A DNA stretch of 64,000 nucleotides from Anaeromyxobacter sp. (GCA_049840735.1 JASGJN010000020.1:256001-320000), one strand, 5' to 3'; shown: positions 37,845 through 57,634, counted from the first letter of the stretch. Notes: generated by a model not told the origin, from the sequence alone. A program made the numbers and translations.

Positions 37845-39194
37845 TCAGCCCAGCCCGTGCTTCTTGAGCCGGTACCGCAGCGTGTCGCGCGAGATGCCCA
37901 GCAGCCGGGCCGCCTGCGACTGGTTCCCGCGCGCCCGCTCCAGCGCCTCGACGATCAGCTTCCGCTCCACCTCGTCCAGCACCAGCCCGTCGGACGGGAC
38001 CTCCGGCACCAGCGGCTCGGGGCGCCGCCCGGCGCGCAGCTCCGGGGCCAGGTGCTCGGGGCGGATCTCGTCGGCGCCGGCGTAGAGGATGAACGCCCGC
38101 TCGATGACGTTGCGCAGCTCGCGGACGTTGCCGGGCCAGCGGTGGGCCCGGAGCAGCTCCAGCGCCTCCGGGTGGATGCCGCGCACCTGCCGCCCCAGCG
38201 CGCGGTTGAACGCGGCGATGAAGTGGGCGGCCAGCGCCGGCACGTCGTCGAGGTGCTCGCGCAGCGGCGGCACGGTGAGGCGCACCACCGCCAGCCGGAA
38301 GTAGAGATCGCGCCGGAAGCGCCCTTCCCTGACCCGCTCCTCGAGATCGGCGTGCGTGGCCGCGATCACCCGCACGTCGGCCGCGTGGGCCACCGCGCCG
38401 CCGGCGTGCCGGTAGGTGTGCGCCTCGATCAGCTGGAGCAGCCGGGCCTGCGCCGTGAGCGGCAGCTCGGAGACCTCGTCCAGCAGGATGGTGCCGCCGC
38501 CGGCCGTCTCCACCACCCCGCGCGAGGGCGTGGCGCCCGCCACCAGCGGCCGCTCCTGCCCGAACAGCTCCGCCTCGACCAGCGCCGGCGTGAGCGCGGC
38601 GCAGTTCACCACCGCGAAGGGGCGGGCCGCGCGCGGGCTGCGGGCGTGCAGGGCGCGGGCGAGCCGCTCCTTGCCGGCGCCGCTCTCACCCTCCACCAGC
38701 ACCGCCGTCTCCTCGCTCCCCGCCAGGCGCGCCACCGCCGCGCGCAGCGCCTCCATCGCCGCCGAGCCGCCCACCACCGGCGCCTCGTCAGCGCCCGGCG
38801 GCGCCGCCGCCACCTGCCGCCGCGTGCGGGCCGTGGTGAGCGCGCGCGAGACCGCCTCGTCCAGCGCCTGCAGCGCGAACGGCTTCACCAGGAAGTCCAC
38901 CGCGCCGTGCTTCATGGCCTCCACCGCGATGTCCACGGTGGAGTGGGCGGAGATCATCAGCACCGCCAGCTCCGGCTGGAGCGCCAGGGCGCGCCGCAGC
39001 GTCTCCACGCCGTCGATCCCCGGCAGCTTCACGTCCAGCACCATCACCTCGGGCGGCGACGCCGCGATGGCCTCCAGCGCCCCCTCGCCCGACTCGGCGG
39101 TGACCACCTCGTGGCCGGACCGCTGCAGGCGCTCGGTGATGGACCAGCGGATCAGCTTCTCGTCGTCTACGACCAGGACGCGGGCGGCGCTCAC
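37845..39194 (-). CDS. NtrC-type response regulator (REC-AAA+-Fis) lacking GAFTGA
   Basis: GESGAGKE, LLDEV, DLYFRL and WPGNVREL are present. The GAFTGA position reads RPLVAGA. Confidence 0.88.
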   Translation of the reverse strand: MSAARVLVVDDEKLIRWSITERLQRSGHEVVTAESGEGALEAIAASPPEVMVLDVKLPGIDGVETLRRALALQPELAVLMISAHSTVDIAVEAMKHGAVDFLVKPFALQALDEAVSRALTTARTRRQVAAAPPGADEAPVVGGSAAMEALRAAVARLAGSEETAVLVEGESGAGKERLARALHARSPRAARPFAVVNCAALTPALVEAELFGQERPLVAGATPSRGVVETAGGGTILLDEVSELPLTAQARLLQLIEAHTYRHAGGAVAHAADVRVIAATHADLEERVREGRFRRDLYFRLAVVRLTVPPLREHLDDVPALAAHFIAAFNRALGRQVRGIHPEALELLRAHRWPGNVRELRNVIERAFILYAGADEIRPEHLAPELRAGRRPEPLVPEVPSDGLVLDEVERKLIVEALERARGNQSQAARLLGISRDTLRYRLKKHGLG

Positions 39195-40690
39195 GGGGCG
39201 GGCTCCGGGCGGGAGGGCGGACGGGCCTGGGGGAGGCTCACGGTGAAGACCGTACCTCCCTCCGGCGGGCAGCGGTAACCGATGTGCCCGCCGTGCTCGG
39301 CCACGATGCGCGCCGAGATGGCGAGCCCCAGGCCGGTCCCCTGCCGCTTGGTGGTGAAGAACGGGGAGAAGACCTGCTTGCGGACCTCGGCCGGGATGCC
39401 GGGGCCGGAGTCCTCCACCTCGACCATCAGCACCTCCCCGTCGGCGCGGGAGCGGACCGCCAGCGTGCCGCCGGCGCCGGCCATGGCCTGGCAGGCGTTG
39501 AGGCAGATGTTGAGGAAGACCTGCTCCAGCTGGCTCGCGTCGCCGCGCACCGGCGGCAGGTCCGGGCAGAGCTCGGTGCGGACCGCGATGCCGTCGTCCC
39601 GGTGCTGCTGGCGGATCAGGAACAGGGCCTTCTGCAGCGCGGCGTTGAGATCGGTGGGGCGCAGCTCGACGCGCGGCGGGCGCGCGAAGCCGAGCAGGCT
39701 CTCCATGGTCCCGGTGAGCCGCACCACCTGGTGGCGCATCTCGGCCACCACCTCGGCCTTGTGGGCGTCGGTGGCCAGGTCCTCCGCCATCAGCTCCAGC
39801 GCGCCGGAGAGGCCGGCCAGCGGGTTCTTGATCTCGTGGGCCAGGCCGGTGGCCAGCGCCCCCACCGCCGCGAAGCGGTCGGCCTGCACCATGCGCTCGC
39901 GGTAGAAGGCCTCCAGCTCCACCTGGCTGCGCCGCAGGGCGGCCAGGGTGGCGTCGAAGCCGCGCGCCGCGGTGCCCAGCTCGTCCGGGCGCCCCTCGTC
40001 GGCGCGCACGGTCCGGTCGCCGGCCTCGGCGCGCTGCATGGCGGCCACCAGCCGCTGCAGCGGGCTCACCACCTCGCGCCCCAGGAGCCAGAGCGCGATG
40101 GCCAGCAGGCAGATCAGCGCCAGGAAGGCGGAGAGCCCCAGCGTCCGCGCCAGCTGCCCCTGCGCCTCCACCACCGGGAGCCGCGAGAAGCGCAGCTCCA
40201 CCCAGCCGCCCACCGGCTGGCCGGCGTCGTGGCAGCGCGCGCAGGCCTGGCTGCGCGGCACCGGCGCCAGCACCGCGAACTCGCTGGTCACGCCGGGCGG
40301 GGAGAGCACGCGGGTGGCCTCGCCCCCCGGCAGATCGGGCCAGGGCACCGCGCCCAGGCGCGAGCGCTCGCTGGACACCGACACCCGGCCGGTGGGCGCG
40401 ATCAGGCTGGCCGAGATCAGGTCGGAGCGGTGGGCGGTGAGGGTGCCCAGGATGGCAGGCACGTCCGCGGGGCGGCCGGCCAGCATCACGTTGGAGACGC
40501 CGGTGGCGGTCATGCGGGCGTAGATCTCGGCCCGCTCCACCCGGGCGCGCTCCAGGTCCGCGCCGTACCAGCGGACCGCCGCCACCACCATCGCCACCAG
40601 GGTGGCTGCGAAGAGCAGCGCGGTGGGGATGAGGACCCGGGCCTGCAGGCTGGCCGAGAGGCGGGCCCAGCCGCGCGAGAGCGCGTTCAC
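39191..40690 (-). CDS. Membrane sensor histidine kinase with periplasmic CxxCH and HAMP domain
   Basis: Two TM segments, CARCH, AHEIKNPL, NACQA and FFTTK..GTGLGL. Confidence 0.9.
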   Translation of the reverse strand: MNALSRGWARLSASLQARVLIPTALLFAATLVAMVVAAVRWYGADLERARVERAEIYARMTATGVSNVMLAGRPADVPAILGTLTAHRSDLISASLIAPTGRVSVSSERSRLGAVPWPDLPGGEATRVLSPPGVTSEFAVLAPVPRSQACARCHDAGQPVGGWVELRFSRLPVVEAQGQLARTLGLSAFLALICLLAIALWLLGREVVSPLQRLVAAMQRAEAGDRTVRADEGRPDELGTAARGFDATLAALRRSQVELEAFYRERMVQADRFAAVGALATGLAHEIKNPLAGLSGALELMAEDLATDAHKAEVVAEMRHQVVRLTGTMESLLGFARPPRVELRPTDLNAALQKALFLIRQQHRDDGIAVRTELCPDLPPVRGDASQLEQVFLNICLNACQAMAGAGGTLAVRSRADGEVLMVEVEDSGPGIPAEVRKQVFSPFFTTKRQGTGLGLAISARIVAEHGGHIGYRCPPEGGTVFTVSLPQARPPSRPEPAP

Positions 40691-40739: not shown

Positions 40740-42032
40740 TCAGGCCGCCTCCACCCGGTCCCCGGCCCGCCCGGCGCTCGCCTCGCCCGCGGCCTGGAGG
40801 TCGAAGATCTGGACCGCCGCGACCACCAGCGGATCGTCCGGCCCGCCGTCGCGGACCGCCTCGCGCAGCCGCGTGCTGGGCGCGTGCAGCAGCTTGGCGA
40901 CGATCGAGCCGGCCATGGCGTCCAGCTTGCGGGCCAGCTCCGGATCCTCGCCCAGCCGCTTCAAGGTGCGCTCCACCTCCTCGCGCGCGATGGCGCTGGC
41001 GCGGGTGCGCATCTCCCTGATGAGCGGCGCGGCCCGGCGCTCGGCCTCGGCGTCGGCGAACTTGCGGACCTCCTCGTCCACGATGCGGCCGGCCTGCTCG
41101 GCCGCCTCGGACCGCTGCGCCAGCGCGGCCTTCATGACGCGATCGAGGTCATCCACGTCGCAGAGGTAGACGTCCGGCAGCGCCCCGGTGGCGGCCGGCA
41201 CGGCCCGCGGGACGGCCAGGTCCACCAGCACGATGCGGCGGCGGCGCTGCCTCATGAGGCGCGCCATGGCCTCCGGGGCCAGCGCCTCCGGGGCGACCGG
41301 GGCGGCGGAGACCACCACGTCGGCCGTGGCCAGCTCCTGCTCCAGCGCGTCCAGCGGCCGGGCCACGCCGCCCACCTCGGCGGCCAACGTCTCGGCGTTG
41401 GCCAGCGTCCGGTTGAGCACCACCACCGTGGCCTTCTGGTCGGCCAGGTGCTGCGCGGTGAGCCGGGCCATCTCGCCGGCGCCGATCACCACCGCGCGCC
41501 GGCCGGCCACCGGTCCCAGCACCTTCTCGGCCAGCACCGTGGCCGCGTGTCCCCAGGACACGCCGGCCCGGCCCAGCGCGGTCTCGGTGCGGATCCGCTT
41601 GGCGGCGCCCAGCCCGCGCGAGAGGACCTGCGCCAGCTCCTTCCCGGCGGTGCCGGCGTCGGCGGCCCGCTGGAAGGCGTCCTTCACCTGCCCCAGGATC
41701 TGCGGCTCGCCCAGGATGGCCGACTCGAGGCTGCCGGCCACGCGGACCAGGTGCCGGAAGGCCTCCTCGCCCTGCAGCTCGAAGAGCGGCAGCTCGCGCC
41801 CGCCGGCGCGCGCCTGGAGCGCCGAGCGCAGCTCCAGCAGCGCCGCCGCGGGGCAGCGGGTGGCGGCGTAGATCTCGACGCGGTAGCAGGTGGAGAGCGC
41901 CACCACCTCGTCGATGCCGCCCAGCCCGGCGTAGCCGGCCAGCGCCACGTCCAGCTGGTCCGCGGTGAGGGCGACGACCTCGCGGTCCGCGACGGTGGCG
42001 CTCTTCTGGTTCAGGCCGATTGCGACGAGCAC
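40740..42032 (-). CDS. hemA: Glutamyl-tRNA reductase
   Basis: [30 protein letters not shown] and KLLHAP. GGAG SD before the GTG at 42032. Confidence 0.9.
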
Positions 42033-42063: not shown

Positions 42064-42078
42064 GCAAGGCCCGTGCCT
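42064..42078 (-). promoter_or_regulatory. sigma54 promoter for hemA-kinase-regulator
   Basis: Minus strand AGGCAC-GGGCC-TTGC. Confidence 0.7.
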
Positions 42079-42396: not shown

Positions 42397-42810
42397 ATGA
42401 CGAACCGGTTCGAGAGCGGCGCGGCGGTCCGGAGCGGCTACTATCTCAACGCGGCGCGCTGGGCGATCCAGCCGGTGGCGCGCGACGGCGAGCGGCTTCC
42501 CGAGGGCAAGGGGGTCTGGATGAAGGTCCCGACGCTGGCGGCCCTGGTGCTCACGCCCATCCTCGGCCTCACCTTCCTGATGTTCCTGCCCCTGATCGGC
42601 TTCGCGCTGCTCCTGGGGTACCTGGCGCGGCCGGTGGTCCGGCTCTTCCACCGCTCCGCCACGGAGCTGGCCGGCACCATGACCCCGGGCTGGCAGCCCG
42701 GCGAGGCGCACCTGACCGGCAAGGCGCCCGAGGCGCCCACGAAGGCTCCGGCCAGGGACGAGAAGCTGGACGCGCTGCAGGCCGAGATCGAGGAGAAGCG
42801 GGTCAAGTAG
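42397..42810 (+). CDS. Hypothetical membrane protein
   Basis: AAGGAG SD and a central hydrophobic hairpin [28 protein letters not shown]. Confidence 0.7.
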
Positions 42811-42871: not shown

Positions 42872-43534
42872 TCAGTCCTCGACGCGGATCACGCCGCGCT
42901 TGATGGCGAACCGCACCAGCTCGGTGCGGTTGTGGACCGCCAGCTTCTCCATGACGTGCTCGCGGTGGGTCATGGCGGTCTTCACGCTGATGCCGAGGAC
43001 GTCGGCGACCTCCTTGTTGCTCCGCCCCTCGGCCACCAGCTTCAGCACCTGCTTCTCGCGGTCGGTCAGCGCCTCGTAGGGATCCGACGAGGCCGGGCCG
43101 GCCGCGCCCCCCTCCTCCATGGCGGTGCGGGCCACCTCCGGATCCAGCACCAGGCCGCCCCGCTGCACGGCGCGGATGGCGTTGGCCAGCTCGGCCCCGG
43201 CCGACTTCTTGAGCACGTAGCCGGCCACGCCCGCCTTGAGCAGGCGGCGCACGTACTCGCGATCCTCGTACTGCGAGAGGATCAGCACCCGCGCCCGCCG
43301 CCCCTGCTTGCGCAGCTCAAGCGCCGCCTCGATGCCGCCCAGGCCCGGCATGGCGATGTCCATCAGCACCACGTCCGGATCGAGCCGCTCCACCTCGGCC
43401 AGGGCCGCCTTGCCGTCCCCCGCCTCGCCCACCACCTCGAGGTCCGGCTGCGCCGAGAGCAGCGCGCGCACGCCGTCGCGCAGCAGCGCGTGGTCGTCCA
43501 CGATCAGCACCCTGATCCGTCCGGCCCCGCTCAT
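42872..43534 (-). CDS. NarL/LuxR-family response regulator
   Basis: IVDDH, LMDIAMP and LTDREKQVLKLVAEGRSNKEVA. Confidence 0.93.
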   Translation of the reverse strand: MSGAGRIRVLIVDDHALLRDGVRALLSAQPDLEVVGEAGDGKAALAEVERLDPDVVLMDIAMPGLGGIEAALELRKQGRRARVLILSQYEDREYVRRLLKAGVAGYVLKKSAGAELANAIRAVQRGGLVLDPEVARTAMEEGGAAGPASSDPYEALTDREKQVLKLVAEGRSNKEVADVLGISVKTAMTHREHVMEKLAVHNRTELVRFAIKRGVIRVED

Positions 43535-45453
43535 GCCCCGCCTCCTCCGGCCCGCCGCTGCGCCGGCGCGCCTGCTTCATGCGCCGGCGCCGCCGCGTCC
43601 GCACGCGAATCGGCGTCCGGGCCGGCCACCTCCAGGACCGGGATCCGGACCGTCACCCGGGTCCCCTGCCCCGGCGCGGAGTCCACCTGGGCGCTCCCGC
43701 CCAGCAGCTCGGCCCGCTCGCGGATGCCCAGGAGCCCCCACGCCGGCCGCCCCTCGCGCCGCACCGCCGCGTCCGGGTCGAACCCGCGCCCGTCGTCCTC
43801 GATCTCGACCCGGATCTCGCCCTCGCCCACCGCCACCTGGACCAGCACCGCGCTGGCCTGGGCGTGGCGCGCCACGTTGGAGAGCGCCTCCTGGCAGATG
43901 CGGAACACCGCCGTCTCCAGCTCCGGCGGCAGGCGCCGGTCGGGCCCCTCGAACTCGCAGCGGACCGTCACGCCGCGCGCGCCCAGCGTGCGGTCCCCGT
44001 ACCAGCGGACCGCCGAGGTGAGCCCCAGGTCGTCCAGCACCGAGGGGCGCAGGTCGAGGATCATGCGGTGGACGTCGTCCAGCGTGCGGACCGCGGTGGC
44101 CTTCACCTCGTCCAGGTCCGGCGTGCGCCCGGCCCGCAGCGCCTCGCGCGCGGCGTCCAGCTTCATGGCCAGGAGCGCCAGCGCCTGAGTGGTCTCGTCG
44201 TGGAGCTCGCGGGCGACCCGCTTCCGCTCGTCCTCCTGCGCCACGATCACCTTGCGCAGGAGCTGCCGGCGCTCGTCCTCGCGGGCGCGCAGCCGCTCGT
44301 TGGCGTCGCCCAGCGCGCGCGTCCGCTCCACCACCCGCCGCTCCAGCTCCTGGTTGGCCTCGCCCACCCGCCGCAGCAGCTGGCGCAGCGCCTCGCGCAT
44401 CCGGTCGAGCGAGAGCCCCAGCCGCCCCACCTCGTCGTGGCCCAGGTCCGGGATGGGCGCGTCCAGCTCCCCGGCGGCGATCCGCTCGGCCTCGGCGCCG
44501 AGCACGCCCAGCGGGCGGGTCACGCTGCGGGCCGCGCCCCAGGCGAAGAGCGCGGCCATGGCCAGGTTCAGCGCCAGCCCACCCACCACCACCACCCAGG
44601 GGATCTGCCCGGAGGGCGAGGTCAGGCCGACGGGCTGCCGGATCACCACCGTCCAGGGCGCCACCGTGAGCGGCGCCACCGTCAGGGTCTCGCGCGACCC
44701 CACCTTGCCGTCGCCCGCTCCCGCGCACCCGAGGCTGGTGGGCTCGCGCCCGCGGGCCTCCGCCGCCACCGCGTCGAAGCAGGCCGGCCGGAGCCCCACC
44801 CGCTCGGCGGCGGTGCTCCCCAGCACCACGCCGTCCGGGCCGAGCAGGTCGGCCTCGCCGCCCGTCCGCCGCAGCGGCGCCAGCGCCGCCGCCAGCCCGC
44901 GGTGGCCCGGGTCGAAGGTGCTGCCGGCGATCCCCACCCGCTGGCCGTCCCAGCGCCGGATCGGCACCAGCGCGTGGACCACCCAGCCGCCGCCGCGCCG
45001 GTCCAGGCCGGAGAGGCGGGGCACGCCATCGCGCAGCACCTCCGCCACCGCGGCCGCGTCCGGCGCCGGCACCTGGGCCGCGCCGGGCGGCAGCGTGCTC
45101 ACGGCCCGGCCCCGGGCGTCGAGGAGGTAGACCGCCAGCCGCGGCTCCAGGTCCTGCCGGGCGTCGGCCATGGCGCCGTGCACCAGCGCCGGGGAGGCCT
45201 CGGGGAAGTCGCGCGCCACCGCCGCCGCCAGGCGCTGCAACAGCGCCAGCTCGCGGGTCATGGTCGCGTCCAGCTGGGCGGCCACCGCGCCCGCCGCCGA
45301 GGCCCGCTCGGCCAGGAGCCGGTCGTCCAGCGCCTCGAGCCAGCGCAGGCCCACCGCGGCCATGATGGCCGCCGGCACCAGGATGCCCATGGCCATGAGC
45401 ACGTTGACGCGCTTCTGCAGCGGCACCCCGCTGGCCCTGCCGGTCAGCCTCAC
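43531..45453 (-). CDS. NarX/HisKA_3-type sensor kinase with a periplasmic sensor and HAMP domain
   Basis: ERKRVARELHDE, EALSNVARHA, DDGRGF and GLLGIRER. Confidence 0.9.
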   Translation of the reverse strand: MRLTGRASGVPLQKRVNVLMAMGILVPAAIMAAVGLRWLEALDDRLLAERASAAGAVAAQLDATMTRELALLQRLAAAVARDFPEASPALVHGAMADARQDLEPRLAVYLLDARGRAVSTLPPGAAQVPAPDAAAVAEVLRDGVPRLSGLDRRGGGWVVHALVPIRRWDGQRVGIAGSTFDPGHRGLAAALAPLRRTGGEADLLGPDGVVLGSTAAERVGLRPACFDAVAAEARGREPTSLGCAGAGDGKVGSRETLTVAPLTVAPWTVVIRQPVGLTSPSGQIPWVVVVGGLALNLAMAALFAWGAARSVTRPLGVLGAEAERIAAGELDAPIPDLGHDEVGRLGLSLDRMREALRQLLRRVGEANQELERRVVERTRALGDANERLRAREDERRQLLRKVIVAQEDERKRVARELHDETTQALALLAMKLDAAREALRAGRTPDLDEVKATAVRTLDDVHRMILDLRPSVLDDLGLTSAVRWYGDRTLGARGVTVRCEFEGPDRRLPPELETAVFRICQEALSNVARHAQASAVLVQVAVGEGEIRVEIEDDGRGFDPDAAVRREGRPAWGLLGIRERAELLGGSAQVDSAPGQGTRVTVRIPVLEVAGPDADSRADAAAPAHEAGAPAQRRAGGGGA

Positions 45454-46004
45454 CGCGTCCTCCCGCTCAGGCTCTCGGCCATGCGCTCCAGCTCCTCCTG
45501 CGGGCCGCACGAGCGGAGCCGGTAGGGGCGGCCGTCCAGCTCCCAGGCCAGCTCGCGCCAGGGCGCGCCGTAGAGCCGCAGCTCGGAGAGGCGCGCGCGC
45601 AGCCCACCCAGGGTCACGTCGCGCGTGCCCAGCACCTCCGGGCGCCCCACCAGCTCCGGGTACAGCTCGTCGCCGGCCCGCAGCGCCTGGAGCAGCTGCA
45701 CCGCCGGCCGCCCCCCGGCGTCGTCGAAGACCAGCAGCGCGGTGCCGCGCCGTCCCCCGGCCACCCAGACCTCCGCCGGCGGCCAGCGCAGCCGCTCGGG
45801 GAAGTAGGCCGGGATGTCGATGCGGGCCGCGAGCTGCCGCTCGGCCTCGGGGAGGCCGGGCACCTTGTGCGCCTCCAGGTCCGAGGCCAGCCAGGCCGGC
45901 ACCGCTCCCAGCGCGGCCAGCCCCAGCGCGGCGGCGGCCACGACCAGGACCAGGGTCCGGAGCATCCGGGCCAGCTCGACCGCTGCGGCGCGCGCGCGGC
46001 TCAC
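45450..46004 (-). CDS. Hypothetical single-TM protein
   Basis: Its stop overlaps the kinase start (GTGA). N-terminal TM segment. Confidence 0.6.
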   Translation of the reverse strand: MSRARAAAVELARMLRTLVLVVAAAALGLAALGAVPAWLASDLEAHKVPGLPEAERQLAARIDIPAYFPERLRWPPAEVWVAGGRRGTALLVFDDAGGRPAVQLLQALRAGDELYPELVGRPEVLGTRDVTLGGLRARLSELRLYGAPWRELAWELDGRPYRLRSCGPQEELERMAESLSGRTR

Positions 46005-46011
46005 GGACTGG

Positions 46012-46986
46012 TCATACCACGAAGAACAGCAGCCCCGTGACGGCCAGGCCCCCCAGGACCACCCGGGCGAAGCCGAACGGCAGGGGGGCCGGCGCCGGCT
46101 CCAGCAGGCGGCGGCAGCGCAGCTCCACGTCCGCCGCCCGGACCCGCGCCAGCGCGGCCGCGAACGGCAGGGTGCGGGCGCCGGTCACGCCGGCGCCGGC
46201 GCGGTAGAGCCGGAGCACGGCGCTGGCCAGCGCCAGCCGGTCGCCCGTCAGCTCGGCGGCGCGCTCGTCGGCGAGCGACTCCGCGTCGCGCATCAGCACG
46301 CGCGCCACCACCTGGAAGGCCGGGTTGAAGGCCAGGAGCCCGCGGGCCAGGAAGAGGGCCCAGCTGGACACCGGATCGCGGTGGGCCAGGTGGCAGAGCT
46401 CGTGGGCCACGGCGGCGCGCAGCTCGCCCGGGTCGAGCAGCGCCAGCGCGCCGCGCGAGACCACCAGCGCCGGCCGGCGCAGGCCGGTGCAGTAGAGGAG
46501 CGGCAGGTCGCTGCCCAGGTGGACGATCCGCGGTGGCGCCAGCGCCAGCCCGGCCGAGAGCGGCCGCACCAGCCCCTCCAGCGCCGCGGCCCTGGCCGCC
46601 GCCAGCGGCGTCTCGGCGCGGCGCGGCCCGCTGCGCCGGCGCAGGTACGGGACCAGGTCGACGAGCAGCAGGGCCAGGCCGGCGCCGGCCATGGCCAGCA
46701 CCCACCAGCCCATCAGCCCCATCCCCAGCCAGCGCAGGTCGTCCCAGCGCCGGGCCTCGAAGAGCGCCGCGGCGCGCCGGAAGGCCTCGGTGGCGCGCAC
46801 CGGGAAGAGGACCATCAGCGCCGGAGACACGAACAGCGGAAGGGCCACGCCCAGGAGGCGCAGGCCCATCCGCTGCCGGGGTTCGACCACCCGCCACGCC
46901 CGCACCAGCGCCTCCACCACCAGCGAGGCCACCAGGGCGTGGAAGATGGACTGGGCGAGGTACTCAGCCCACGTCGCGCTTGTCAT
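46012..46986 (-). CDS. M56 (BlaR1-like) membrane zinc peptidase
   Basis: AHELCH, NP, E.LAD.RA and several TM segments. Confidence 0.8.
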   Translation of the reverse strand: MTSATWAEYLAQSIFHALVASLVVEALVRAWRVVEPRQRMGLRLLGVALPLFVSPALMVLFPVRATEAFRRAAALFEARRWDDLRWLGMGLMGWWVLAMAGAGLALLLVDLVPYLRRRSGPRRAETPLAAARAAALEGLVRPLSAGLALAPPRIVHLGSDLPLLYCTGLRRPALVVSRGALALLDPGELRAAVAHELCHLAHRDPVSSWALFLARGLLAFNPAFQVVARVLMRDAESLADERAAELTGDRLALASAVLRLYRAGAGVTGARTLPFAAALARVRAADVELRCRRLLEPAPAPLPFGFARVVLGGLAVTGLLFFVV

Positions 46987-47697: not shown

Positions 47698-48752
47698 CGA
47701 TTCACCACGACGCGCCACAGGTGGAGCGCGATCTGGAGCAGGAGCCCGCCCACCATGAACGGGATCATCAGGCGGTAGAACAGCTGCACCATCCAGACCA
47801 GCGGCGCCTTCTCCGGCGTCGGCTGGTAGTGCGAGAGCCAGGCCTTGGGGAAGCTGGCGCTGGCGCCCTGGTGGCACTTGGCGCAGGTCTTCTGGAGGTT
47901 GGCGGCGATCACGGTCGAGCTCGGGTCGCCCGCCTTCTGGATGTCGTGCACACCGTGGCAGTCGGTGCAGCCCGCGGCCAGGCGGCCGCCGCCCTCGCGG
48001 CTGGCGCGGCCGCGCTGCAGCGTGGCGGACATGCCGTGGAAGTCGTTGAGGTAGGTGGAGACCACGTCGGGCGAGAGGCCGTACTTCTTCATCAGCTTCT
48101 CGTCGGAGTGGCAGCGGCCGCAGATGTCGGCGGTGCGCAGCGCCATCTGGCCGCCGCGGACGTCGATGGTGTCGTGCGCCCGGTGGCAGTCGGTGCAGAC
48201 CGGCACGTCCTCGTTCTTCTGGTCGAGGGCGCGGCCGTGCACGCTCTTCGCGAAGGCCTCGGCCTCCTCGAAGTGGCACTCGGCGCAGAGCTGGGCGATG
48301 CGGCCGCGCTCGTGCGGCCCGGCGACGGCGTGCGAGCCGTGGCAATCGACGCAGGTGGGCGCGCTGGTGTTCCCGGCCTCGGCCACCCGGTGGTGGACGC
48401 CGTCCAGGCTCTTCTTGAAGTTCTGGATATGGCAGGCCTTGCAGGCCTCCACGTGACGGCGGGTGAGATTGGCCGTGCCCTTGTAGGGCAGCGGCTTGCC
48501 GTCGGAGTGCTCGGTGGTCATGCCCACGTGGCACTGCACGCAGCTGACGGGCTGCTGCGCCTTGCCGTGGACCGAGCCACCGTAGGCGGCGGCGTCGACG
48601 GGCGCGAGCTTGAGCTCGCCGCCGCCGGCCAGCGTCGCGGACTGCTCGTCGGCGTGGCACATCAAGCAGTCATCGTTGGAGGGGTCGTCGGCGGCGGCCC
48701 AGCTGGGGCCTGCGGCGAGCGCGACGAGGAGCGGCAAGACCGATCGTCTCAT
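47694..48752 (-). CDS. Nine-heme cytochrome c with signal peptide and C-terminal TM anchor
   Basis: CLMCH, CVQCH, CKACH, CVDCH, CAECH, CTDCH, CGRCH, CTDCH and CAKCH. Confidence 0.92.
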   Translation of the reverse strand: MRRSVLPLLVALAAGPSWAAADDPSNDDCLMCHADEQSATLAGGGELKLAPVDAAAYGGSVHGKAQQPVSCVQCHVGMTTEHSDGKPLPYKGTANLTRRHVEACKACHIQNFKKSLDGVHHRVAEAGNTSAPTCVDCHGSHAVAGPHERGRIAQLCAECHFEEAEAFAKSVHGRALDQKNEDVPVCTDCHRAHDTIDVRGGQMALRTADICGRCHSDEKLMKKYGLSPDVVSTYLNDFHGMSATLQRGRASREGGGRLAAGCTDCHGVHDIQKAGDPSSTVIAANLQKTCAKCHQGASASFPKAWLSHYQPTPEKAPLVWMVQLFYRLMIPFMVGGLLLQIALHLWRVVVNR

Positions 48753-48878
48753 TGGGATCCACCTGGTGATGTCGGGCGCGTCAATCCGTACCAGGGTACG
48801 GTTGGCGCCTTGTTACCAGGGGCGGGCAAAATTGTCCAACCTCTAGACTATTGTAACTACGCGATAAATTTACGCGCT

Positions 48879-49224: not shown

Positions 49225-49929
49225 TCAGGCCGGCCTGAGGAAGCTGTCCACCAGCTTGCGCCAGCCGTCCTCGCCCATCAGCCAGGGGGCCGGGGCCACC
49301 AGCGCCCCGCCGTCGGCCGCTGCGAGGCCGAGCCGCTCCTCCAGGAAGGAGGCGAAGCGGAGCGACTCACGCCGGGTGAACGCCTCGGCGACGTCGCCGG
49401 TGGGCAGGCCCAGCCACCCATCGCCGGCGGGCGTGAGCGCCGCCACCCAGCCGCCGGCCAGCCCGTCCCGCTTCACCAGCGCCGGGTCGCGCAGCACCGC
49501 GGCGTTGACGCCGGCCACCACCCCCGCCACCGGCGCGAGCAGCGGCACCGACCGCTCGCCGGCGTGGAGCAGCGCCACCGGCTCGCCCGCCTCGACCCGC
49601 GTGCCGGTCGCCACTGGCTCGACCGCCGTGACGCCGGGCAGCAGCTGCTGGGCGATGCCGTCCAGCCCCAGCTCCACCGTCCCGCCGCCCCGCGCCCGCA
49701 GCCACACGTGGCCGGGGGCCAGGTGGAGCGCCGGCCGGAAGGGCACGCCGGCCACCTCGCGCAGCCCCAGCCGCGCCTCCCGCCGCGCGGCGGCGGCCCG
49801 GATCACCGCGGCCACCGCGGCCACCGGGAGCCCCACCGCCAGGAGCGCCAGCAGCACCACCCCGAACCGCGCCCCCACGCCCAGCACGAACACCGCCGTC
49901 GCCTGGAGGATGTCGATCACGGCCTGCAT
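49225..49929 (-). CDS. Membrane-anchored GcvH-fold protein without a lipoyl lysine
   Basis: N-terminal TM and HVW..GLDG..APVAGVVAGVN..GWV. The lipoyl loop reads HAGERSV. C-terminal ADGG. Confidence 0.75.
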   Translation of the reverse strand: MQAVIDILQATAVFVLGVGARFGVVLLALLAVGLPVAAVAAVIRAAAARREARLGLREVAGVPFRPALHLAPGHVWLRARGGGTVELGLDGIAQQLLPGVTAVEPVATGTRVEAGEPVALLHAGERSVPLLAPVAGVVAGVNAAVLRDPALVKRDGLAGGWVAALTPAGDGWLGLPTGDVAEAFTRRESLRFASFLEERLGLAAADGGALVAPAPWLMGEDGWRKLVDSFLRPA

Positions 49930-49945: not shown

Positions 49946-50284
49946 TCACTCCGCGTGACACATGCTGCAGTCGTCGAGGCCGAACGCCTTCTTGCCGTCG
50001 TGGCAGGCGCCGCAGGCCTGGCCCTTCTCCATCTTCTCGTGGGTGATCCCCAGCGGCTGGGCGCCGCCCGAGCGCCCCAGGATCCCGAACGGCTGCGGGT
50101 GGCAGCCCAGGCAGCTGGGGTGGGCCCCGTCCACGTGCATGTCGTGGTTGAACGTCACCACGCCCGGGCTGTCCTTGGCCTGCACCAGCGCCTGCCCCTT
50201 GGGCAGGTTGGGCAGCTCGCCCGCCACCGCTCCGCCGGCCAGCAGCCCGGCCACCAGCACCCCCAGCGTCGTCTTGCGCGTCAT
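49946..50284 (-). CDS. Small triheme cytochrome c (c7-like)
   Basis: Signal peptide, FNHDMH, CLGCH, CGACH and CSMCH. Confidence 0.88.
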   Translation of the reverse strand: MTRKTTLGVLVAGLLAGGAVAGELPNLPKGQALVQAKDSPGVVTFNHDMHVDGAHPSCLGCHPQPFGILGRSGGAQPLGITHEKMEKGQACGACHDGKKAFGLDDCSMCHAE

Positions 50285-50300
50285 GGTCCGGTCTCCGGGC

Positions 50301-51032
50301 TCAGGTGAGGAAGAAGCCGCGCGCCAGCTCGTCCCAGTCGTCGCCGGCCAGCGCCTGCGCGATGCCGTGGACCGGCGCGCCGCCGTCCTGCAGCACCTGC
50401 CCGAGCTCCGGGCTGAGCCGGAGCGCCAGGCGCTCCGAGGCCTCGTCCAGCAGCCGGCGCGCGGGGGCGTCGGCGAGCAGCTGGCGCAGGTTGGCCGCCA
50501 GCCGCGGCGCCTTCACCTTGAACAGCCAGCCGGCGCCGTAGACGTCGGCCAGGGCCGCCGGGGCGTCCACCGCGGCCCGGTTCACCGCCACCACCGTGCC
50601 GTCGACCGGCGAGGCCAGCGCTACCGCCTTGTGGCCGTCGCCCAGCGAGAGGGCCGGGTCGCCCTGGGCCACGTGCGCGCCCAGCGCGGGCACCGTGACC
50701 TGGGCCGGGCCCACCAGCTTGTGGGCGAAGTCGTCCACGCCCACCGTCACCAGGCCGTCGGCCTCCAGCCGCGCCCAGGTGTGGCCCGGGTGCAGGTGGA
50801 CGCCGGCCGGGATCTGGAACCAGCCCGGGAGCGCAGCGGCGCGCGGGGCGGCGGGGCGGGCCGGGGTGGCCGCGGCGCGCGGGACCTCGGCGGCGGCCGT
50901 GGCCGCGACCGGCTGCGGCCGGCCGCCCTGCACGTAGCGCCAGAACGGGATGAAGAGCAGCAGGTAGGTGACCGCGAGCCCGTACTCCATCAGCTTCGCG
51001 GGGTAGACCGAGAGCAGGTCGAAGTGGTTCAT
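50301..51032 (-). CDS. Membrane-anchored GcvH-fold protein with a non-canonical lipoyl loop
   Basis: N-terminal TM and HTWAR..VGVDDFA..SPVDGTVVAVN..DVYGAGWLF. The loop reads GDGHKAV instead of ESVKAA. C-terminal QDGG. Confidence 0.8.
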   Translation of the reverse strand: MNHFDLLSVYPAKLMEYGLAVTYLLLFIPFWRYVQGGRPQPVAATAAAEVPRAAATPARPAAPRAAALPGWFQIPAGVHLHPGHTWARLEADGLVTVGVDDFAHKLVGPAQVTVPALGAHVAQGDPALSLGDGHKAVALASPVDGTVVAVNRAAVDAPAALADVYGAGWLFKVKAPRLAANLRQLLADAPARRLLDEASERLALRLSPELGQVLQDGGAPVHGIAQALAGDDWDELARGFFLT

Positions 51033-51042
51033 GGCGTCCTCC

Positions 51043-52261
51043 TCACCCGTGATCCGCGAAGCGGGGGTCCTCGCGGAGGATGGGCATGCGGTTCACGATC
51101 CAGCGGAAGGCCAGCACGCCGACGGTGACCAGCGTGACGGAGACCCAGATCTCCATCCAGCTCGGCACGTAGCGGACCGGCGCCTGCCAGTTGAGGGCCA
51201 CGATGGAGACGTTGAGCCGGTTGAGCGCGATCCCGATCACGCCCAGCACGCCGGCCACGCGCACCACCCTGACCCGGCCGTTGCGCGCGCCCCAGGCGAA
51301 GAGCAGCGAGGGGAGCAGCACGAAGCCGAGGATCTCGACCAGGAACCAGGCGCCCATGGGCGTGGCCAGCAGGGGCCAGGCGTGGCCGTCGATGACGCCC
51401 TGCAGCTTCAGGAAGAAGTAGGCGAACATCACCAGCGCGCCGGCCTTGCCCAGCCCCAGCGTGAGCCTGTCCACGTCCACGTGGTGGCCCGCCACCTGGC
51501 TGGCGAAGATCCGGTGCGAGAGCGCGCTCTCCACCACCACCATGCAGATGCCGGCGATGATCGCGGAGATGAAGAAGAAGATGAAGATGTAGGGCGTGTA
51601 CCAGAGCGGGTGGAGCTTGGTCGGCATGAGCAGGAAGAGCGAGCCCAGGGCCGACTGGTGCATGGTCGAGAAGATGACCGAGAGCACCGTGAGCGCGATG
51701 AGGATCTTCTTCCAGGGGCGCCACCAGCCGCCGCCAGCCCAGCCACTCGAAGAAGGACAGCGCGAACTCGAGGAAGAGGACGCTCGAGTAGCACATCACG
51801 CACCAGGCGACCTCGAAGAGGACCGAGGCGGTGCCGAAGTTCACGATGGCCATCACGATGTTCCAGGGGCGGCCCAGGTCGGCCAGGAGGCCGACGATGG
51901 CGATCACGTAGCCGAGGAAGGCGGTCAGGATCGCCGGCCGCTCGATGGGGTGGTAGGCCTTGAGCCCGAAGAGCTGGACGGTGGCGCCGATGGTGAAGCC
52001 GCCGGCCGCCAGCACGATCCCGGTCATCATGTCGAACCCGATCCAGAGGCCCCAGGGGGCGGTCTGGGAGAGGTTCGTGGTGGCGCCCAGGCCCACTGCG
52101 AACCGCACCACCAGGATGGGCAGGCCGACCGCCAGGATCACGGCGGCCACGGCGTTGAAGGGCGTGATTCAGCGTGCGGAGGTACTCGCGGAGCCCCATC
52201 CCCAGCAGGATTTCTCGCGGAAGAACGTGGACGGTGCCGCGGCGGCGGTCGCGCTAGCCAT
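51043..52261 (-). CDS. NrfD/HybB-family polytopic membrane protein (three frameshifts near 52211, 52168 and 51716)
   Basis: TNLS..PWGLWIGFD, LAAGGF, DLGRPW, FEVAWC and STMHQSALGSLF..KLHPLW. Confidence 0.88.
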
Positions 52262-53153
52262 GGTGATCCTCCTTCGCGGCCGGCGCGTGGGACTGGCCGT
52301 CCACCTCGTCGCGGCGCTTCGAGAACGCGTAGAGCCCCATCAGCAGCGGGGGCCACAGGGTCATCACGAACGGCGGTGCGCCCAGCGCGCCGGAGACCAG
52401 CTCCGGGAACGCCTTGCCCGGCACGTCGGTCCGCAGGGCCAGCTGGCCCAGGTCGACGTCGGACAGGTAGAGCCAGCTGGTGCCGCCGGCCTCCTCCTCG
52501 CCGTAGACGTGGTGCAGGTAGCGGCCCGGGTTGGTGTAGATGCGGGTCTTGGCCACCTCGAGCAGCTCGCCGCGCTTGCCGAAGGTGAGCGCGCCGGAGG
52601 GGCAGACCTCGGTGCAGGCCGGCGGGAGCCCCTGCGCCTGCCGCGGCGCACAGAACGTGCACTTGCGGACGCGCGGGGCGTTGCTGGCGTACTCGTACTT
52701 GGGGACGTCGAACGGGCAGGCCAGCATGCAGTACCGGCAGCCCATGCACTTGCTGGCGTCGTAGACCACCGGCCCGCTGGGCAGCTTGTCCATGGCGCGG
52801 ACCGGGCAGGCCGAGGCGCAGGCGGGCGCGAGGCAGTGCATGCACTGCTTCTTGGCGAAGCGCTCCTCGCCCCCCGCCTTCTCGGTCCGGTTCACCACCG
52901 TGAAGGCCTGCTCGCTGGTGTCCCGCCGCTGCCGCATGACCGCGTCGTCGGGCGGCGGCGCCGGCAGCTGGTTGGCCTCGGCGCACGCCGCCTCGCAGCC
53001 GCGGCAGCCGACGCACAGGGTGGTGTCGACCAGCACGCCCGGTCCATCCGCGGGCGCGCCGTGTTCCGGGGTGGAGGCGGCCGCGGCCGCGGCGCCGGCG
53101 GCGCCTGCGGTCGCGACGGCGATTCTGAAGAACCCTCTGCGTCCGATCTGCAT
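52254..53153 (-). CDS. HybA/NrfC-like 4x[4Fe-4S] protein with Tat signal
   Basis: GRRGFF, CVGCRGCEAAC, CMHCLAPACASACP, CMGCRYCMLACP, KCTFC..CTEVCP and a C-terminal TM. Confidence 0.92.
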   Translation of the reverse strand: MQIGRRGFFRIAVATAGAAGAAAAAASTPEHGAPADGPGVLVDTTLCVGCRGCEAACAEANQLPAPPPDDAVMRQRRDTSEQAFTVVNRTEKAGGEERFAKKQCMHCLAPACASACPVRAMDKLPSGPVVYDASKCMGCRYCMLACPFDVPKYEYASNAPRVRKCTFCAPRQAQGLPPACTEVCPSGALTFGKRGELLEVAKTRIYTNPGRYLHHVYGEEEAGGTSWLYLSDVDLGQLALRTDVPGKAFPELVSGALGAPPFVMTLWPPLLMGLYAFSKRRDEVDGQSHAPAAKEDHHG

Positions 53154-53167
53154 GGCGGTCTCCGGCC

Positions 53168-53245
53168 CTAGCTGCGGGCGGCCATCAGGTTCAGCGTCCC
53201 GAGCACCGCGACACCGACCAGCGCGACGGCGAATGCGAACATCAT
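53168..53245 (-). CDS. 25-aa single-TM peptide (unannotated small protein)
   Basis: GAAAGGAGG SD, ATGA overlap with the upstream stop, sequence MMFAFAVALVGVAVLGTLNLMAARS*. Confidence 0.6.
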   Translation of the reverse strand: MMFAFAVALVGVAVLGTLNLMAARS

Positions 53246-53463
53246 GGCGTGCCTCCTTTCGACAGCTCCGGGGTGAGATGCGAGTCCGCGTCCGCCGACC
53301 GCTCCACGCGCTGCCGGGCCTCGCGGTAGGCGGGGCACGACTCGAAGCCGCAGGCGGCCTCGCAGCTGTTGGCGGTGGTGACCTGGTCGAGCGGGACGAG
53401 CTTCTTGACCGGGTAGGCGCGGCAGAAGACCATCCGGATTTCCTTGAAGTACGGGCAGGTCAT
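53242..53463 (-). CDS. Small Cys-rich protein (73 aa)
   Basis: AGGAGGAG SD, MTCPY...FC...SCEAAC...CPAY. First gene after a sigma54 promoter. Confidence 0.7.
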   Translation of the reverse strand: MTCPYFKEIRMVFCRAYPVKKLVPLDQVTTANSCEAACGFESCPAYREARQRVERSADADSHLTPELSKGGTP

Positions 53464-53490
53464 CGGCCGCTCCTCCTGCCCTTCACAAGG

Positions 53491-53505
53491 GCAAGCGCCG
53501 GGCCA
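53491..53505 (-). promoter_or_regulatory. sigma54 promoter for the hybAB-like operon
   Basis: Minus strand TGGCCC-GGCGC-TTGC, 27 nt before the first ATG. Confidence 0.7.
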
Positions 53506-53959: not shown

Positions 53960-55338
<1,379 letters not shown>

Positions 55339-55342
<4 letters not shown>

Positions 55343-55881
55343 GGCCACGCTCCTCCAGCGAGTTCTCCGAGCCGCGCGCAGCACTCGCCGCACAGCCTGG
55401 CTTCCTTGTCGTCCACGTCGCGCACGCCGGCGGAGCGGGACATCACGCACGCGGCGGTGGCGCAGTGCACCAGCCCGAAGGCGTGCCCGACCTCGTGCAC
55501 GGCCTCCTTGGCCAGCCGCTCCTCCAGCAGGTCCGGCCCCATCACGTCCACGTCCTCGAGCAGCCGCGCCGTGGAGACCACCGCCGCCGCGCCGCCCAGC
55601 TGCGCCTCGCCGAAGACGTAGGTGAGGATGGGGATGAAGAGGTCGCGGTCGGTGACCCCCAGCACCTTGCCGGCGCGCGGGCCGGCGTCCAGCAGCCACT
55701 GCAGGATCGCCTTCGAGGCGTGCTGCCTGCGCCTCGGATCGTAGGCGTGCAGCGGCCGCGCGGGCGAGCTCCAGCGGCGCACCGGCCGCCGGAACGCGTC
55801 CGCCAGGTGGACGGCGACGTGGGTGAGCAGGGCCTGATCCGGCTCCGCCTCCCCGATCCACCAGATGAAGATGGGCTCCAT
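55339..55881 (-). CDS. Archaemetzincin-family (M54) zinc protease
   Basis: YVFGEA, KEAVHEVGHAFGLVHC....CVM and LCGEC. Confidence 0.88.
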
Positions 55882-57634
55882 TCATCCCCGCCCCGTCGCC
55901 TCGCCGTCCGCACCGGCCGGCCGGGCCGGGAGCCGGAAGGCCACCCGCGTCCCCACCCCCATCTCGCTCCTGAGATCGACGGTCCCGCCGTGGCGCTCCA
56001 CGATGCCGTAGACCACCGAGAGGCCCAGGCCGGTGCCGCGCTCCTTGGTGGTGAAGAAGGGATCGAAGATCTTGGAGAGGTGGTCGGGCGGGATGCCCGG
56101 GCCGCTGTCGGCGAACGCCACCTCCACCTGCCCGTCCGCCAGCACGCCGGTGGTCACGGCGAGGACCCCGCCGCGCCCCATGGCCTCGCAGGCGTTCATC
56201 ACCACGTTGACGCAGGCCTGCCGCAGCTGTCCGAAGTCGCCCGCCACCGCCGGCACCGGCGCGCGCGCCCGCTCCAGCCGGACGCCCTGGATGTTGATCT
56301 GGTTGGCCAGCAGCTGCAGCGCCTCCTCCACCACCGCGTTCAGGTCCACGTCCTTGACGCTGAGCGGCCGCTCGCGCGCGAAGTCGAGCAGGTTGCGGAC
56401 GATGGCGCTGCAGCGCTCGGTCTCGCGCTGCACCAGCAGCAGGTGGTCGATGAGCTTGCGGCGGGTGGCGTCGTCCGGCGGCCCGCCGTCCAGGGTGCGG
56501 ACGATCAGCTTGGCGAAGGTGAGGATGCCGGCCAGCGGGTTGTTGATCTCGTGGGCGATGGACGCGGAGAGCTTGCCCAGCGAGGAGAGCTTCTCCGAGC
56601 GGACCAGCTGGTCCTGGGCGGCCCGCAACGCCGCGGTCCGGTCCTGGACCTGCTTCTCCAGGCTGGACATGAGCGCGTCCAGCTCGCGCCGCGCGTGGCG
56701 GAGCGAGCGGATCATGTCGTTGAAGGAGGCGGCCAGGAGCCCCAGCTCGCCGGTCCAGGTGACGGGGATTCTCCAGCTCCAGCTGCTCGCGCGCCACCCG
56801 GCGCGTGGCCTGCACCAGGGCCGCCACCGGCCGCATGACGTGCCGCCGGGCGAAGAACCAGACGAACAGCCCCAGCAGCGCCGCCGCGACGCCCGCCGCG
56901 GCCAGGCTGCGCCAGCGGAAGGTCCGCGCCTCGGCGTCGAGCCGCGCCAGCGACACGCTCACGTCCAGCACGCCCAGGACCTGCTGCCCGGCGGGGTGGG
57001 CGTGGCAGGCGGCGGTGGAGCAGGAGGGCGCGTTCAGGATGGGCGTGACGATGCCCAGCACGCGGTGGTCGCCGGCCTGGAAGACGCGGCTGCGATCGGC
57101 CAGGTCGAGGTGGCCGAGCGGCTCGCCCTCGGCGTGGCAGCCCCAGCACGCCTCGGCGCGCCGGTCCACCAGGCGCCCGGCCTCGCCCGGGGTGGTCGAG
57201 AAGGTGATCCGCCCGCCCCCGTCCATCATGCGGATCCGCTCGATGCCGGGCTGGCGGGCGATGTCCTCCATGATGGCGTAGGCGTCCGGCCGCCGGTCCT
57301 GCAGCATGGCCCGGTCGAGCGAGTTGCGGACCGTGTTGCTGAGCAGGTCGGACTCGCCCACCACCTGCGTCAGCAGGTGGCGCTGGACGGCCAGCTCGGC
57401 CGCGAAGAAGGCGGCCACCGTGGCGAGCGCCAGCAGGCCGGTCATGGCGAAGAGGCGCGTGGAGAGGCGCTGCCGCCAGGGGATGTCCAGGCCGAGCTGG
57501 TCGACCGAGGCCGGCGCGATGGCCCGCGCCAGCCGGTCCAGCGCCAGCGCCTCCTCAGGGAGGCGAGCCTCGGGGCCGGGGCCGGCCTGGCCCGGTCGGG
57601 GCGGCTGCGGGGCGGATGGGTTCGGCGAGGCCAT
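55882..57634 (-). CDS. Membrane sensor histidine kinase with periplasmic CxxCH and Cx4CH motifs (frameshift at 56767-56771)
   Basis: CWGCH, CSTAACH, HAMP domain, AHEINNPL, NACEA and FFTTK..GTGLGL. Confidence 0.9.

Follow-up and report, generated by a model that had tools for sequence, protein, structure and literature searches.

Positions 37845-57634 of the 64,000-nt stretch of Anaeromyxobacter sp. DNA analysed here (the window; JASGJN010000020.1:256001-320000, genome G000) had been described, in an initial annotation made from the sequence alone, as a sigma54-linked respiratory and signalling locus. Our analysis identifies within it, between 49225 and 57634, what appears to be a quinone:cytochrome c module of the Hmc/Nhc type. 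Open reading frame (ORF) listing, GC-frame analysis and Pfam recovered every gene named initially, on the minus strand and in the order given, and added one that had been overlooked, on the plus strand. Pfam supports the named families, with the exceptions of Cys73, TM184 and the kinase sensor, which have no Pfam match. Many genes are coupled, as had been proposed (8 of the 18 junctions overlap and one abuts), and three gaps of 472-839 bp leave four units: HK1-M54-bEBP1 (unit 1), Cys73-peptide-HmcB-HmcC-GcvH1-c7-GcvH2 (unit 2), nine-haem c-cytochrome b-M56-TM184-kinase-NarL (unit 3) and hemA-HK2-bEBP2 (unit 4). In agreement with the initial annotation, no hydrogenase, molybdoenzyme or NrfA gene was found within the locus. 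The features of units 1 and 2, which form the core, are the following.

55882..57634, minus: HK1, sensor histidine kinase (Pfam HisKA/HATPase/HAMP) with a periplasmic PAS-like domain; probable assembly frameshift near 56768, intact in the relative L027
57134-57148 (CxxCH) and 57002-57022 (CX4CH), minus: HK1 haem motifs, plus invariant Met110
55339..55881, minus: archaemetzincin (M54) zinc protease, NF033823 above cut-off; membrane helix not predicted
53960..55342, minus: bEBP1, sigma54 activator (receiver-AAA-HTH) with a GSFTGA loop
53618..53733, minus: predicted activator-binding sites, with palindromes at 53719-53733 and 53701-53715 and a third at 53618-53632
53491..53505, minus: sigma54-type -24/-12 site, TGGC-N7-TTGC, kept in 6/6 relatives checked
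53242..53463, minus: Cys73, stand-alone four-cysteine domain (phmmer)
53168..53245, minus: 25-aa hydrophobic peptide, kept in 5/5 relatives checked
52254..53153, minus: HmcB-like Tat-exported Fe-S protein, 16 invariant Cys, four clusters predicted
51043..52261, minus: HmcC-like NrfD-family quinone-site subunit (Pfam NrfD); probable assembly indels near 52210, 52168 and 51710
50301..51032, minus: GcvH1, HmcD-type membrane helix, GcvH fold and helical DGG tail
49946..50284, minus: trihaem c7-type periplasmic cytochrome, PF14522 and TIGR04257 above cut-off; best PDB match 3ov0
49225..49929, minus: GcvH2, N-terminal membrane anchor, lysine-less GcvH fold and DGG tail

The Fe-S/NrfD pair had initially been labelled HybA/HybB. 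The superfamily implied by this label stands, but the label itself does not, as the Hmc models score higher. Among NCBIfam models the Fe-S protein is matched better by HmcB (348 bits, cut-off 420) than by HybA (224), and the NrfD-family subunit, scored on the intact relative L027, by HmcC (461 bits, cut-off 550) ahead of HybB (248) and QrcD (72). The RR pair and the 16 cysteines of the HmcB-like protein are present in 64 of 64 sequences. In a quick tree of 64 NrfD-type sequences, the Anaeromyxobacter type and the other GcvH-linked types form one clade (SH-aLRT 99), which adjoins HmcC proteins above the cut-off and lies far from the genome's own HybB; the root of this tree is unsure because that HybB is a long branch. 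By score and tree position, the nearest counterparts of the pair are HmcB/HmcC from the Desulfovibrio Hmc/Nhc complexes. No solved structure was matched by the HmcC-like protein or its profile. HybA/HybB of hydrogenase-2 share the NrfC/NrfD superfamily and a Tat-exported Fe-S protein with our pair, but linked NiFe subunits are absent from the locus. The possibility that the pair is the HybAB of a hydrogenase was rejected on the basis of the lower scores, the distance in the tree and the complete Hyb operon present elsewhere in the genome, on C11.

The missing catalytic subunit had been presented as striking. It becomes ordinary because the pair is closest to the Hmc/Nhc type, complexes which likewise lack one, and because dimers of this sort are reported to function by themselves, with periplasmic cytochromes as partners (PMC6303296, PMC3534657). 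NrfC/D dimers can operate without further subunits together with soluble periplasmic proteins, and HmcC is likely to be electrogenic, in an uncertain direction (PMC6303296). Pairs without a catalytic subunit are described in Melioribacter (PMC3534657) and MBNT15 (PMC9386147). An orphan NrfD gene, perhaps of another family, that is accompanied by a tetrahaem cytochrome, an Fe-S gene and regulators is reported to be strongly induced on H2/sulfite (PMC13490349).

As in Hmc of Desulfovibrio (HmcABCDEF), the HmcB- and HmcC-like genes occur in the same order and are followed by an HmcD-type helix, a catalytic subunit is lacking and regulators are encoded in the locus. The differences are as follows. 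The 16-haem HmcA is missing, with only 3- and 9-haem cytochromes in its stead (the HmcA model reaches 15 bits against a cut-off of 400), and so are HmcE (NarI-type) and HmcF (CCG Fe-S); HmcD, recognizable at family level as an N-terminal fusion, is joined to a GcvH fold and accompanied by a second GcvH-fold protein and a c7 cytochrome; and a haem kinase, a sigma54 activator and an M54 protease stand in place of Rrf1/Rrf2. NhcABCD of Desulfovibrio desulfuricans, composed of a cytochrome, an Fe-S protein, an NrfD protein and a small subunit, is described as a cytochrome c3:quinone oxidoreductase (PMC8076601) and has the same minimal architecture. However, the cytochrome co-transcribed here is a trihaem c7 and not a c3-type nine-haem NhcA heading the operon, while the nine-haem protein of our locus is membrane-anchored and belongs to a separate downstream unit. 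This position, together with the lack of a PDB match to a c3-type nine-haem cytochrome, led us to reject its identity as NhcA.

The unexpected part of the core is its GcvH-fold proteins. In the model of GcvH1 (pLDDT 87.8), an N-terminal helix leads into an H-protein fold, which superposes on solved H proteins with a TM of ~0.88, and a helical tail follows. The nearest named homologues of GcvH1 are from Anaeromyxobacter, at ~65-74% identity. Its family is large: with E up to 1e-10 we counted 1216 clusters at 50% identity, some of which may be true GcvH. The HmcD model NF045712 matches 28 of 112 family members (best 6e-8), although it gave no match with the 39-aa helix piece of the window protein alone. 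Conversely, a reverse profile of the GcvH1 helix recovered free 30-40-aa HmcD peptides in 12 of 30 loci that had been chosen by HmcC alone, and HmcD-GcvH fusions in three further HmcC-chosen loci. As judged from these profile matches in both directions, GcvH1 is an HmcD fused to a GcvH fold. The family also includes cytochrome c-HmcD-GcvH fusions (P0162, P0200) and a receiver-GcvH fusion (P0171), which together place the GcvH domain in the cytoplasm. In a three-chain prediction of HmcC, HmcB and GcvH1 from the relative L021, part of the complex modelling that had been proposed, ipSAE reached 0.41 (best control 0.00), with contact agreement between runs of at least 64% and partner pLDDT of at least 68; in calibration, 116 of 157 solved pairs attained the mark for a complex, as did 2 of 215 mismatched ones, and scores of 0.60 or less among mark-reaching pairs came from 18 of the 157 solved pairs and from both mismatches. 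This lends weak support to the binding of GcvH1 to HmcBC.

GcvH1 shares its fold with glycine-cleavage H protein, LbpA and GcvH-L, yet it differs from them in its membrane anchor, its extra DGG-bearing helical tail and a lipoyl lysine that is not conserved. Indeed, in 112 GcvH1-family members the lipoyl-site column is G in 53, and the next column is R in 42 and K in 30; the window protein carries a Lys one position off the lipoyl site, which is not conserved either. HxGHxW and the DGG loop are near-invariant in the family. Among 199 GcvH-like ORFs from the 80 distant loci described below, the ESxK lipoyl motif occurs in one and DGG in 187. The GcvH model scores 68 bits against a cut-off of 117, and neither GcvH1 nor GcvH2 contains a cysteine. 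At family level, a role as lipoylated carriers was rejected on account of the unconserved lysine column and the single ESxK. The same DGG motif was also found outside the fold: membrane peptides of 70-120 aa, ending in LGxTMADGG and a charged tail and lacking a GcvH domain, are encoded at L044:1016-1279 and in 14 other loci. Separately, an acetyl-CoA synthetase fused to a C-terminal lysine-less GcvH fold lies inside the cassette of L063 (6783-9422), and an ORF of similar length is present in L078.

The remaining small components recur as well. The four-cysteine domain of Cys73 has phmmer matches in 30 loci, in 26 of which it is fused to GcvH-like proteins; in the ESM Atlas, Cys73 and the plus-strand 137-aa protein match hypothetical clusters only. 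The 25-aa peptide gave no match in NCBIfam, and its gene precedes stand-alone GcvH1 genes in L022, L025 (twice), L028, L029, L031 and L034. The archaemetzincin is well supported by NF033823 (158 bits, cut-off 145), and its HExxHxxGxxH motif and Cys ligands are invariant in 50 of 50 orthologues.

The kinase that heads the core had been noted for its CxxCH motif. This motif is indeed present, but a second one, CX4CH, had been overlooked, and both are invariant, together with Met110, in 51-52 orthologues. The sensor model (pLDDT 85.9) has a PAS-like fold, and its second-ranked Foldseek match is the haem sensor GSU0935 (3b42; E 1.3e-5, TM 0.40-0.51), WalK being higher by TM; by sequence, no solved structure was matched. 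With its PAS-like fold, CxxCH and Met ligand, the sensor resembles the Geobacter-type c-haem PAS domains and is predicted to bind haem. Geobacter and Anaeromyxobacter are reported to have PAS-like sensors that carry an additional haem motif, with no mention of an NrfD partner (PMC3831638). The genome holds a paralogue of HK1 that has no HmcBC beside it.

Both sigma54 promoters proposed initially were recovered, at 53491-53505 before the core operon and at 42064-42078 before hemA. The first recurs identically before an unlinked GcvH2 paralogue at G000:C26:480602. Upstream of it lies a tandem palindrome of the GTCGAG-N3-CTCGAC type, with its two copies 18-19 bp apart, ~270-250 bp before the first start codon (that of Cys73), and the third copy of the palindrome is nearer to this start than the pair. 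The tandem operator is kept in 11 relative regions. When the genome was scanned with a matrix trained on relatives only, the window site ranked first (30.7) among 28 pairs and the promoter of the unlinked GcvH2 paralogue second (27.1). Only these two have a sigma54 site, compared with none in three shuffles; at looser thresholds the count was 3 of 83, versus 0-3 in five shuffles. In the relative loci examined, the operator pair precedes a GcvH2 paralogue and six of eight stand-alone GcvH1 copies, as well as a second HmcBC operon that had been part of the training set; some of these copies come from close kin and are hence not independent. A search for the operator pair ahead of the nine-haem unit, hemA and the plus-strand gene, and in the cytochrome islands, found none. 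The operator therefore predicts a small regulon, composed of this operon and unlinked GcvH-fold copies, and the idea of a single regulon for the 20 kb was rejected. The second HmcBC-c7-GcvH1 operon carrying the operator (L024:5489-16369, genome G021) lies upstream of genes for a PAS protein, three hemerythrin-domain proteins (one RIC-like), a molybdopterin oxidoreductase, an Fe-S protein and a Rieske protein.

To follow the core beyond the genus, we used a GcvH1 profile (six-sequence alignment) and retained the best 80 of 384 distant loci. These come from records labelled as at least nine phyla, including Thermodesulfobacteriota, Bacteroidota, Gemmatimonadota, Calditrichota, Acidobacteriota, Nitrospinota, Deferrimicrobiota, Planctomycetota and Myxococcota. 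Among the 30 loci of at least 19 kb, HmcBC occurs in 30, two or more GcvH-fold genes in 30, the haem kinase in 27, the activator in 28 and M54 in 26, and all five elements are found together in 26. Over the whole set of 80 the corresponding counts are 69, 71, 53, 53 and 50, with all five in 42. The co-occurrence of NrfD, GcvH-like, M54 and haem kinase genes, for which a neighbourhood search had been suggested, is hence borne out across phyla. A multihaem cytochrome accompanies 13 of the 30 longer loci and 28 of the 80. No catalytic family recurs among the neighbours in the 80 loci, NiFe small and large subunits included, nor does an HmcE/HmcF-like family; M56, TM184, the NarX-like kinase and hemA are found in 0 of 80, and 10 of the 80 have a bc-type cytochrome pair next to the core. 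Within the genus, 10 orthologous loci keep the segment from HK1 to NarL, one of them rearranged, with M56 and TM184 in 8 of 10. In a sample of 301 genomes of the phylum, the GcvH1 type was present in 34 of 41 genomes of the host's family and in 0 of 123 of family f6. Two Bacteroidota loci, L046 and L061, contain two Fe-S/NrfD and haem-kinase cassettes in tandem, one of which has a 13-haem cytochrome and a deep-branching NrfD.

The explanation that we favour, with slightly better than even confidence, is that the core (49225-57634) is a self-regulated Hmc/Nhc-type quinone:cytochrome c conduit whose HmcD carries a GcvH fold and whose extra parts serve assembly or feedback. In this respect the quinone-to-periplasmic-cytochrome conduit with haem-based sensing proposed initially is supported by what the sequences suggest. 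Electrons would likely pass between menaquinone and periplasmic c-type cytochromes: HmcC would bind quinone near the periplasmic face, and the Tat-exported HmcB would relay electrons through its four Fe-S clusters to the c7 cytochrome; in other lineages the acceptor of HmcB may be c3, 9-, 13- or 21-haem cytochromes, or cytochromes encoded elsewhere. By homology to QrcD/HybB this step may be electrogenic, in either direction. GcvH1 would occupy the HmcD slot and hold its GcvH fold and DGG loop on the cytoplasmic side, the position of HmcEF in Hmc. The GcvH folds, Cys73, the 25-aa peptide and M54 would most likely form an assembly, docking or feedback layer, and not act as lipoate carriers. HK1 would sense how reduced or oxidized the periplasmic haem pool is and activate bEBP1 accordingly; the activator, bound at the tandem operator, would then switch on this operon and the unlinked GcvH-fold copies. 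There are precedents in the NrfC/D dimers that act by themselves (PMC6303296) and in BccR/CbcBA.

Several observations weigh against this conduit. Both subunits of the pair fall below the NCBIfam cut-offs for HmcB and HmcC. In 17 of the 30 full-length distant loci there is no multihaem cytochrome within ~10 kb, though the kinase, activator and protease stay; in favour of the conduit, all five distant genomes tested, four of them without a nearby cytochrome, have cytochrome c maturation genes and multihaem cytochromes elsewhere. Stand-alone copies of the peptide and GcvH1 without HmcBC are common, so GcvH1 is not merely a stoichiometric subunit. The presence of GcvH in the distant loci is a product of construction, since these were picked with a GcvH1 query. 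Finally, the operator matrix was built from a small set of 28 sites, and under relaxed thresholds each shuffled genome yields 0-3 matches by chance.

Another explanation, which we consider unlikely, is that the core is a redox-sensing machine in which HmcBC passes electrons from the quinone pool directly to the haems of HK1, the GcvH folds, peptide and protease transduce or reset the signal, and nearby cytochromes are optional. Its main support is that the kinase, activator and protease turn up about twice as regularly as the multihaem cytochrome (27, 28 and 26 of 30 loci, against 13). In addition, both haem motifs of HK1 and its candidate Met ligand are invariant, a receiver-GcvH fusion exists, and the 25-aa peptide accompanies stand-alone GcvH1 under the same operator. 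Small membrane peptides such as MgrB and SafA tune kinases, and the 25-aa peptide recalls these. The main point against it is that the predicted regulon contains the cassette's own HmcBC and GcvH-fold genes only, a pattern easier to reconcile with a feedback-controlled working complex than with a pure sensor. Furthermore, the sensors with extra haem motifs known from Geobacter and Anaeromyxobacter are described with no mention of an NrfD partner (PMC3831638), and the HK1 paralogue of this genome has no adjacent HmcBC.

A less probable explanation is that soluble metabolic enzymes dock on the GcvH-fold subunits, which would take the place of HmcEF on the cytoplasmic side of the quinone module, the complex thereby linking cytoplasmic oxidation to periplasmic cytochromes. 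In Hmc, HmcD connects HmcC with HmcEF by its position, whereas the HmcD of our core carries a cytoplasmic fold; the acetyl-CoA synthetase fusion within the L063 operon, with the similar-length ORF of L078, would agree with docking, as would the fusion of the four-Cys domain to GcvH folds in 26 loci and the near-invariant DGG loop that also occurs on bare membrane peptides in 15 loci. Yet no redox cofactor is evident in these subunits, given the single ESxK among 199 ORFs and the absence of cysteines from GcvH1 and GcvH2, and no HmcE/HmcF-like family recurs in any of the 80 loci. Least probable of all is that HmcBC is the orphan membrane arm of a hydrogenase, NrfA or molybdoenzyme encoded elsewhere: the genome does contain a NiFe hydrogenase, two NrfA copies and several molybdopterin-domain genes, and the second operon of L024 sits upstream of a molybdopterin oxidoreductase and hemerythrins, but dedicated membrane partners are already encoded for these enzymes: HybA/HybB for the hydrogenase, separate membrane subunits for Nar and ACIII, and a tetrahaem protein for the inspected NrfA copy, while the second lies within a like nine-motif cluster, and no catalytic family recurs in the 80 distant loci.

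The rest of the locus is composed of the following features.

48811..48839, minus: sigma70-like motif upstream of the nine-haem unit, TTGGAC...TGGTA, a putative promoter
47694..48752, minus: nine-haem cytochrome c (9 CxxCH) with a C-terminal membrane helix, split CbcL/CbcA-like
46964..47697, minus: FdnI-type cytochrome b, PF01292, TIGR01583 best; probable assembly indels near 47647 and 47517, intact in L027
46012..46986, minus: M56 (BlaR1-type) membrane peptidase (Pfam)
45450..46004, minus: TM184, single-helix protein matching no known family
43531..45453, minus: HisKA_3 kinase (NarX-like), CxxCH absent in the window copy
42872..43534, minus: NarL/LuxR-type response regulator (Pfam)
42397..42810, plus: 137-aa membrane protein of no known family, conserved in relatives
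42064..42078, minus: sigma54-type site before hemA, kept in 1/1 relative checked; tandem operator not found there
40740..42032, minus: hemA, glutamyl-tRNA reductase (Pfam); second hemA at G000:C12
39191..40690, minus: HK2, kinase with one CxxCH, motif kept in 5/5 relatives
37845..39194, minus: bEBP2, GAFTGA loop replaced in this strain

The initial annotation had treated the 20 kb as one system with two membrane modules and its own haem supply. The locus is instead a mosaic of four units, and the genes outside the core are looser neighbours. The nine-haem unit lacks the operator and is preceded by the sigma70-like motif, which is found in the window and in four of seven relatives, with variants in the other three; as noted above, M56, TM184 and the NarX-like kinase are not seen in the distant loci. 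The nine-haem cytochrome has 28% identity to the N-terminal half of a fused c and b cytochrome of the same genome. Separate genes encode it and the cytochrome b, in the window as in intact relatives, and both are homologous to this fused protein, a CbcL-like multihaem c plus FdnI-type b encoded on C26 (G000:C26:83905-85494, L125:5267-7543), whose C-terminus is apparently frameshifted. CbcL of Geobacter sulfurreducens is described as having nine c-haems and an FdnI-type cytochrome b (PMC6295460), and our pair fits this published description; it differs in being split into two genes, with no bEBP1 operator predicted upstream. Homologues of CbcBA near BccR-like activators are reported in Anaeromyxobacter (bioRxiv 2021.04.15.440034), and the locus resembles these, again by description only, in having a sigma54 activator beside a bc-type module and two-haem-motif sensors. 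In the CbcBA-like pair of eight distant loci, the cytochrome b is closer to C23:165151 of the genome than to the window gene. The best explanation for the nine-haem/cytochrome b pair is a putative CbcL/CbcBA-like quinol oxidase, transcribed separately.

Regarding the kinase of this unit, a role as nitrate sensor gained no support, the NarX score being 83 bits against a cut-off of 578. It carries a CxxCH in seven of eight relatives checked, which has been lost in the window copy. The lack of a GAFTGA loop in bEBP2 was correctly noticed, but it is specific to this strain, the loop being GAFTDA in 5/5 relatives. The haem supply fared no better than the unity of the locus: among 13 relatives that have the hemA block and the core on one contig, the two adjoin in three and are 35-94 kb apart in the other 10, and a second hemA lies elsewhere in the genome. 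Directly upstream of HK1, on the plus strand (57871-59722), are two genes that we take, from their motifs, to be purU-like and oxygen-dependent coproporphyrinogen oxidase (hemF)-like, so a second haem-synthesis gene may border the locus. At the other end, an RpoH/RpoD-type sigma factor gene (36734-37717, plus strand) converges on bEBP2, and likewise follows the hemA block in L135, L136, L137 and L139.

In relatives, the interval between NarL and hemA contains giant cytochromes of 16-42 haem motifs in the three gaps examined, one of which also holds cytochrome c biogenesis-like genes. Islands of this kind, mixed with glycosyltransferase-like genes, make up L128-L134 (G021, G020, G023); none is present at this place in the window genome. 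Since the locus borders such an island in several relatives, extracellular electron transfer is a likely outlet in Anaeromyxobacter. The plus-strand 137-aa protein has a paralogue at G000:C13:336352-336771 and is also found in L021, L023, L129, L130 and L134, often as two copies that flank the locus and the cytochrome island, with a shared upstream motif of its own and no sigma54 site.

Six indels interrupt three genes of the locus, namely HK1 (one), the NrfD gene (three) and cytochrome b (two), and five of the six are at GA(A)TC words. They are probably assembly errors, because the three genes are unbroken in relatives and similar breaks were found in 10 of 51 genes tested outside the locus, mostly at GA(A)TC words too. 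Real pseudogenes were rejected as unlikely on the same grounds. Such indels occur genome-wide (for example at C13:211399, C21:16806 and C4:203173) and disrupt numerous genes, the second hemA and both NrfA copies among them. As a consequence, annotation of this assembly will count too many pseudogenes.

The electron-transfer skeleton of the core is a known one; its constant companions, the GcvH folds, M54 and the two-haem kinase, are unexplained. In the literature covered by our search no description of the gene set was found, and the NrfD review 10.1016/j.bbabio.2021.148416 could cover such neighbourhoods. How redox potential is sensed for the choice among inner-membrane pathways is considered an open question (bioRxiv 2021.04.15.440034). 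Because of its predicted operator and small regulon the system is directly testable, and cultured Anaeromyxobacter have named homologues. Annotation pipelines name these genes glycine-cleavage H proteins, which is misleading. What recurs across at least nine phyla, in organisms that include syntrophs, metal reducers and uncultured anaerobes, is a fold of central metabolism reused, apparently without lipoate, as a probable subunit of a respiratory complex, next to a conserved protease without known substrate and a two-haem kinase. A bolder possibility, to which we give rather little credence, is that these parts form a widespread undescribed membrane machine, in which an Hmc-type quinone module is wired physically to the two-haem kinase, and the lipoate-free GcvH folds, DGG loop, 25-aa peptide and archaemetzincin make up a cytoplasmic feedback circuit. 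If so, anaerobes of many phyla would read their quinone pool directly, and this would be the first physiological role for a bacterial archaemetzincin.

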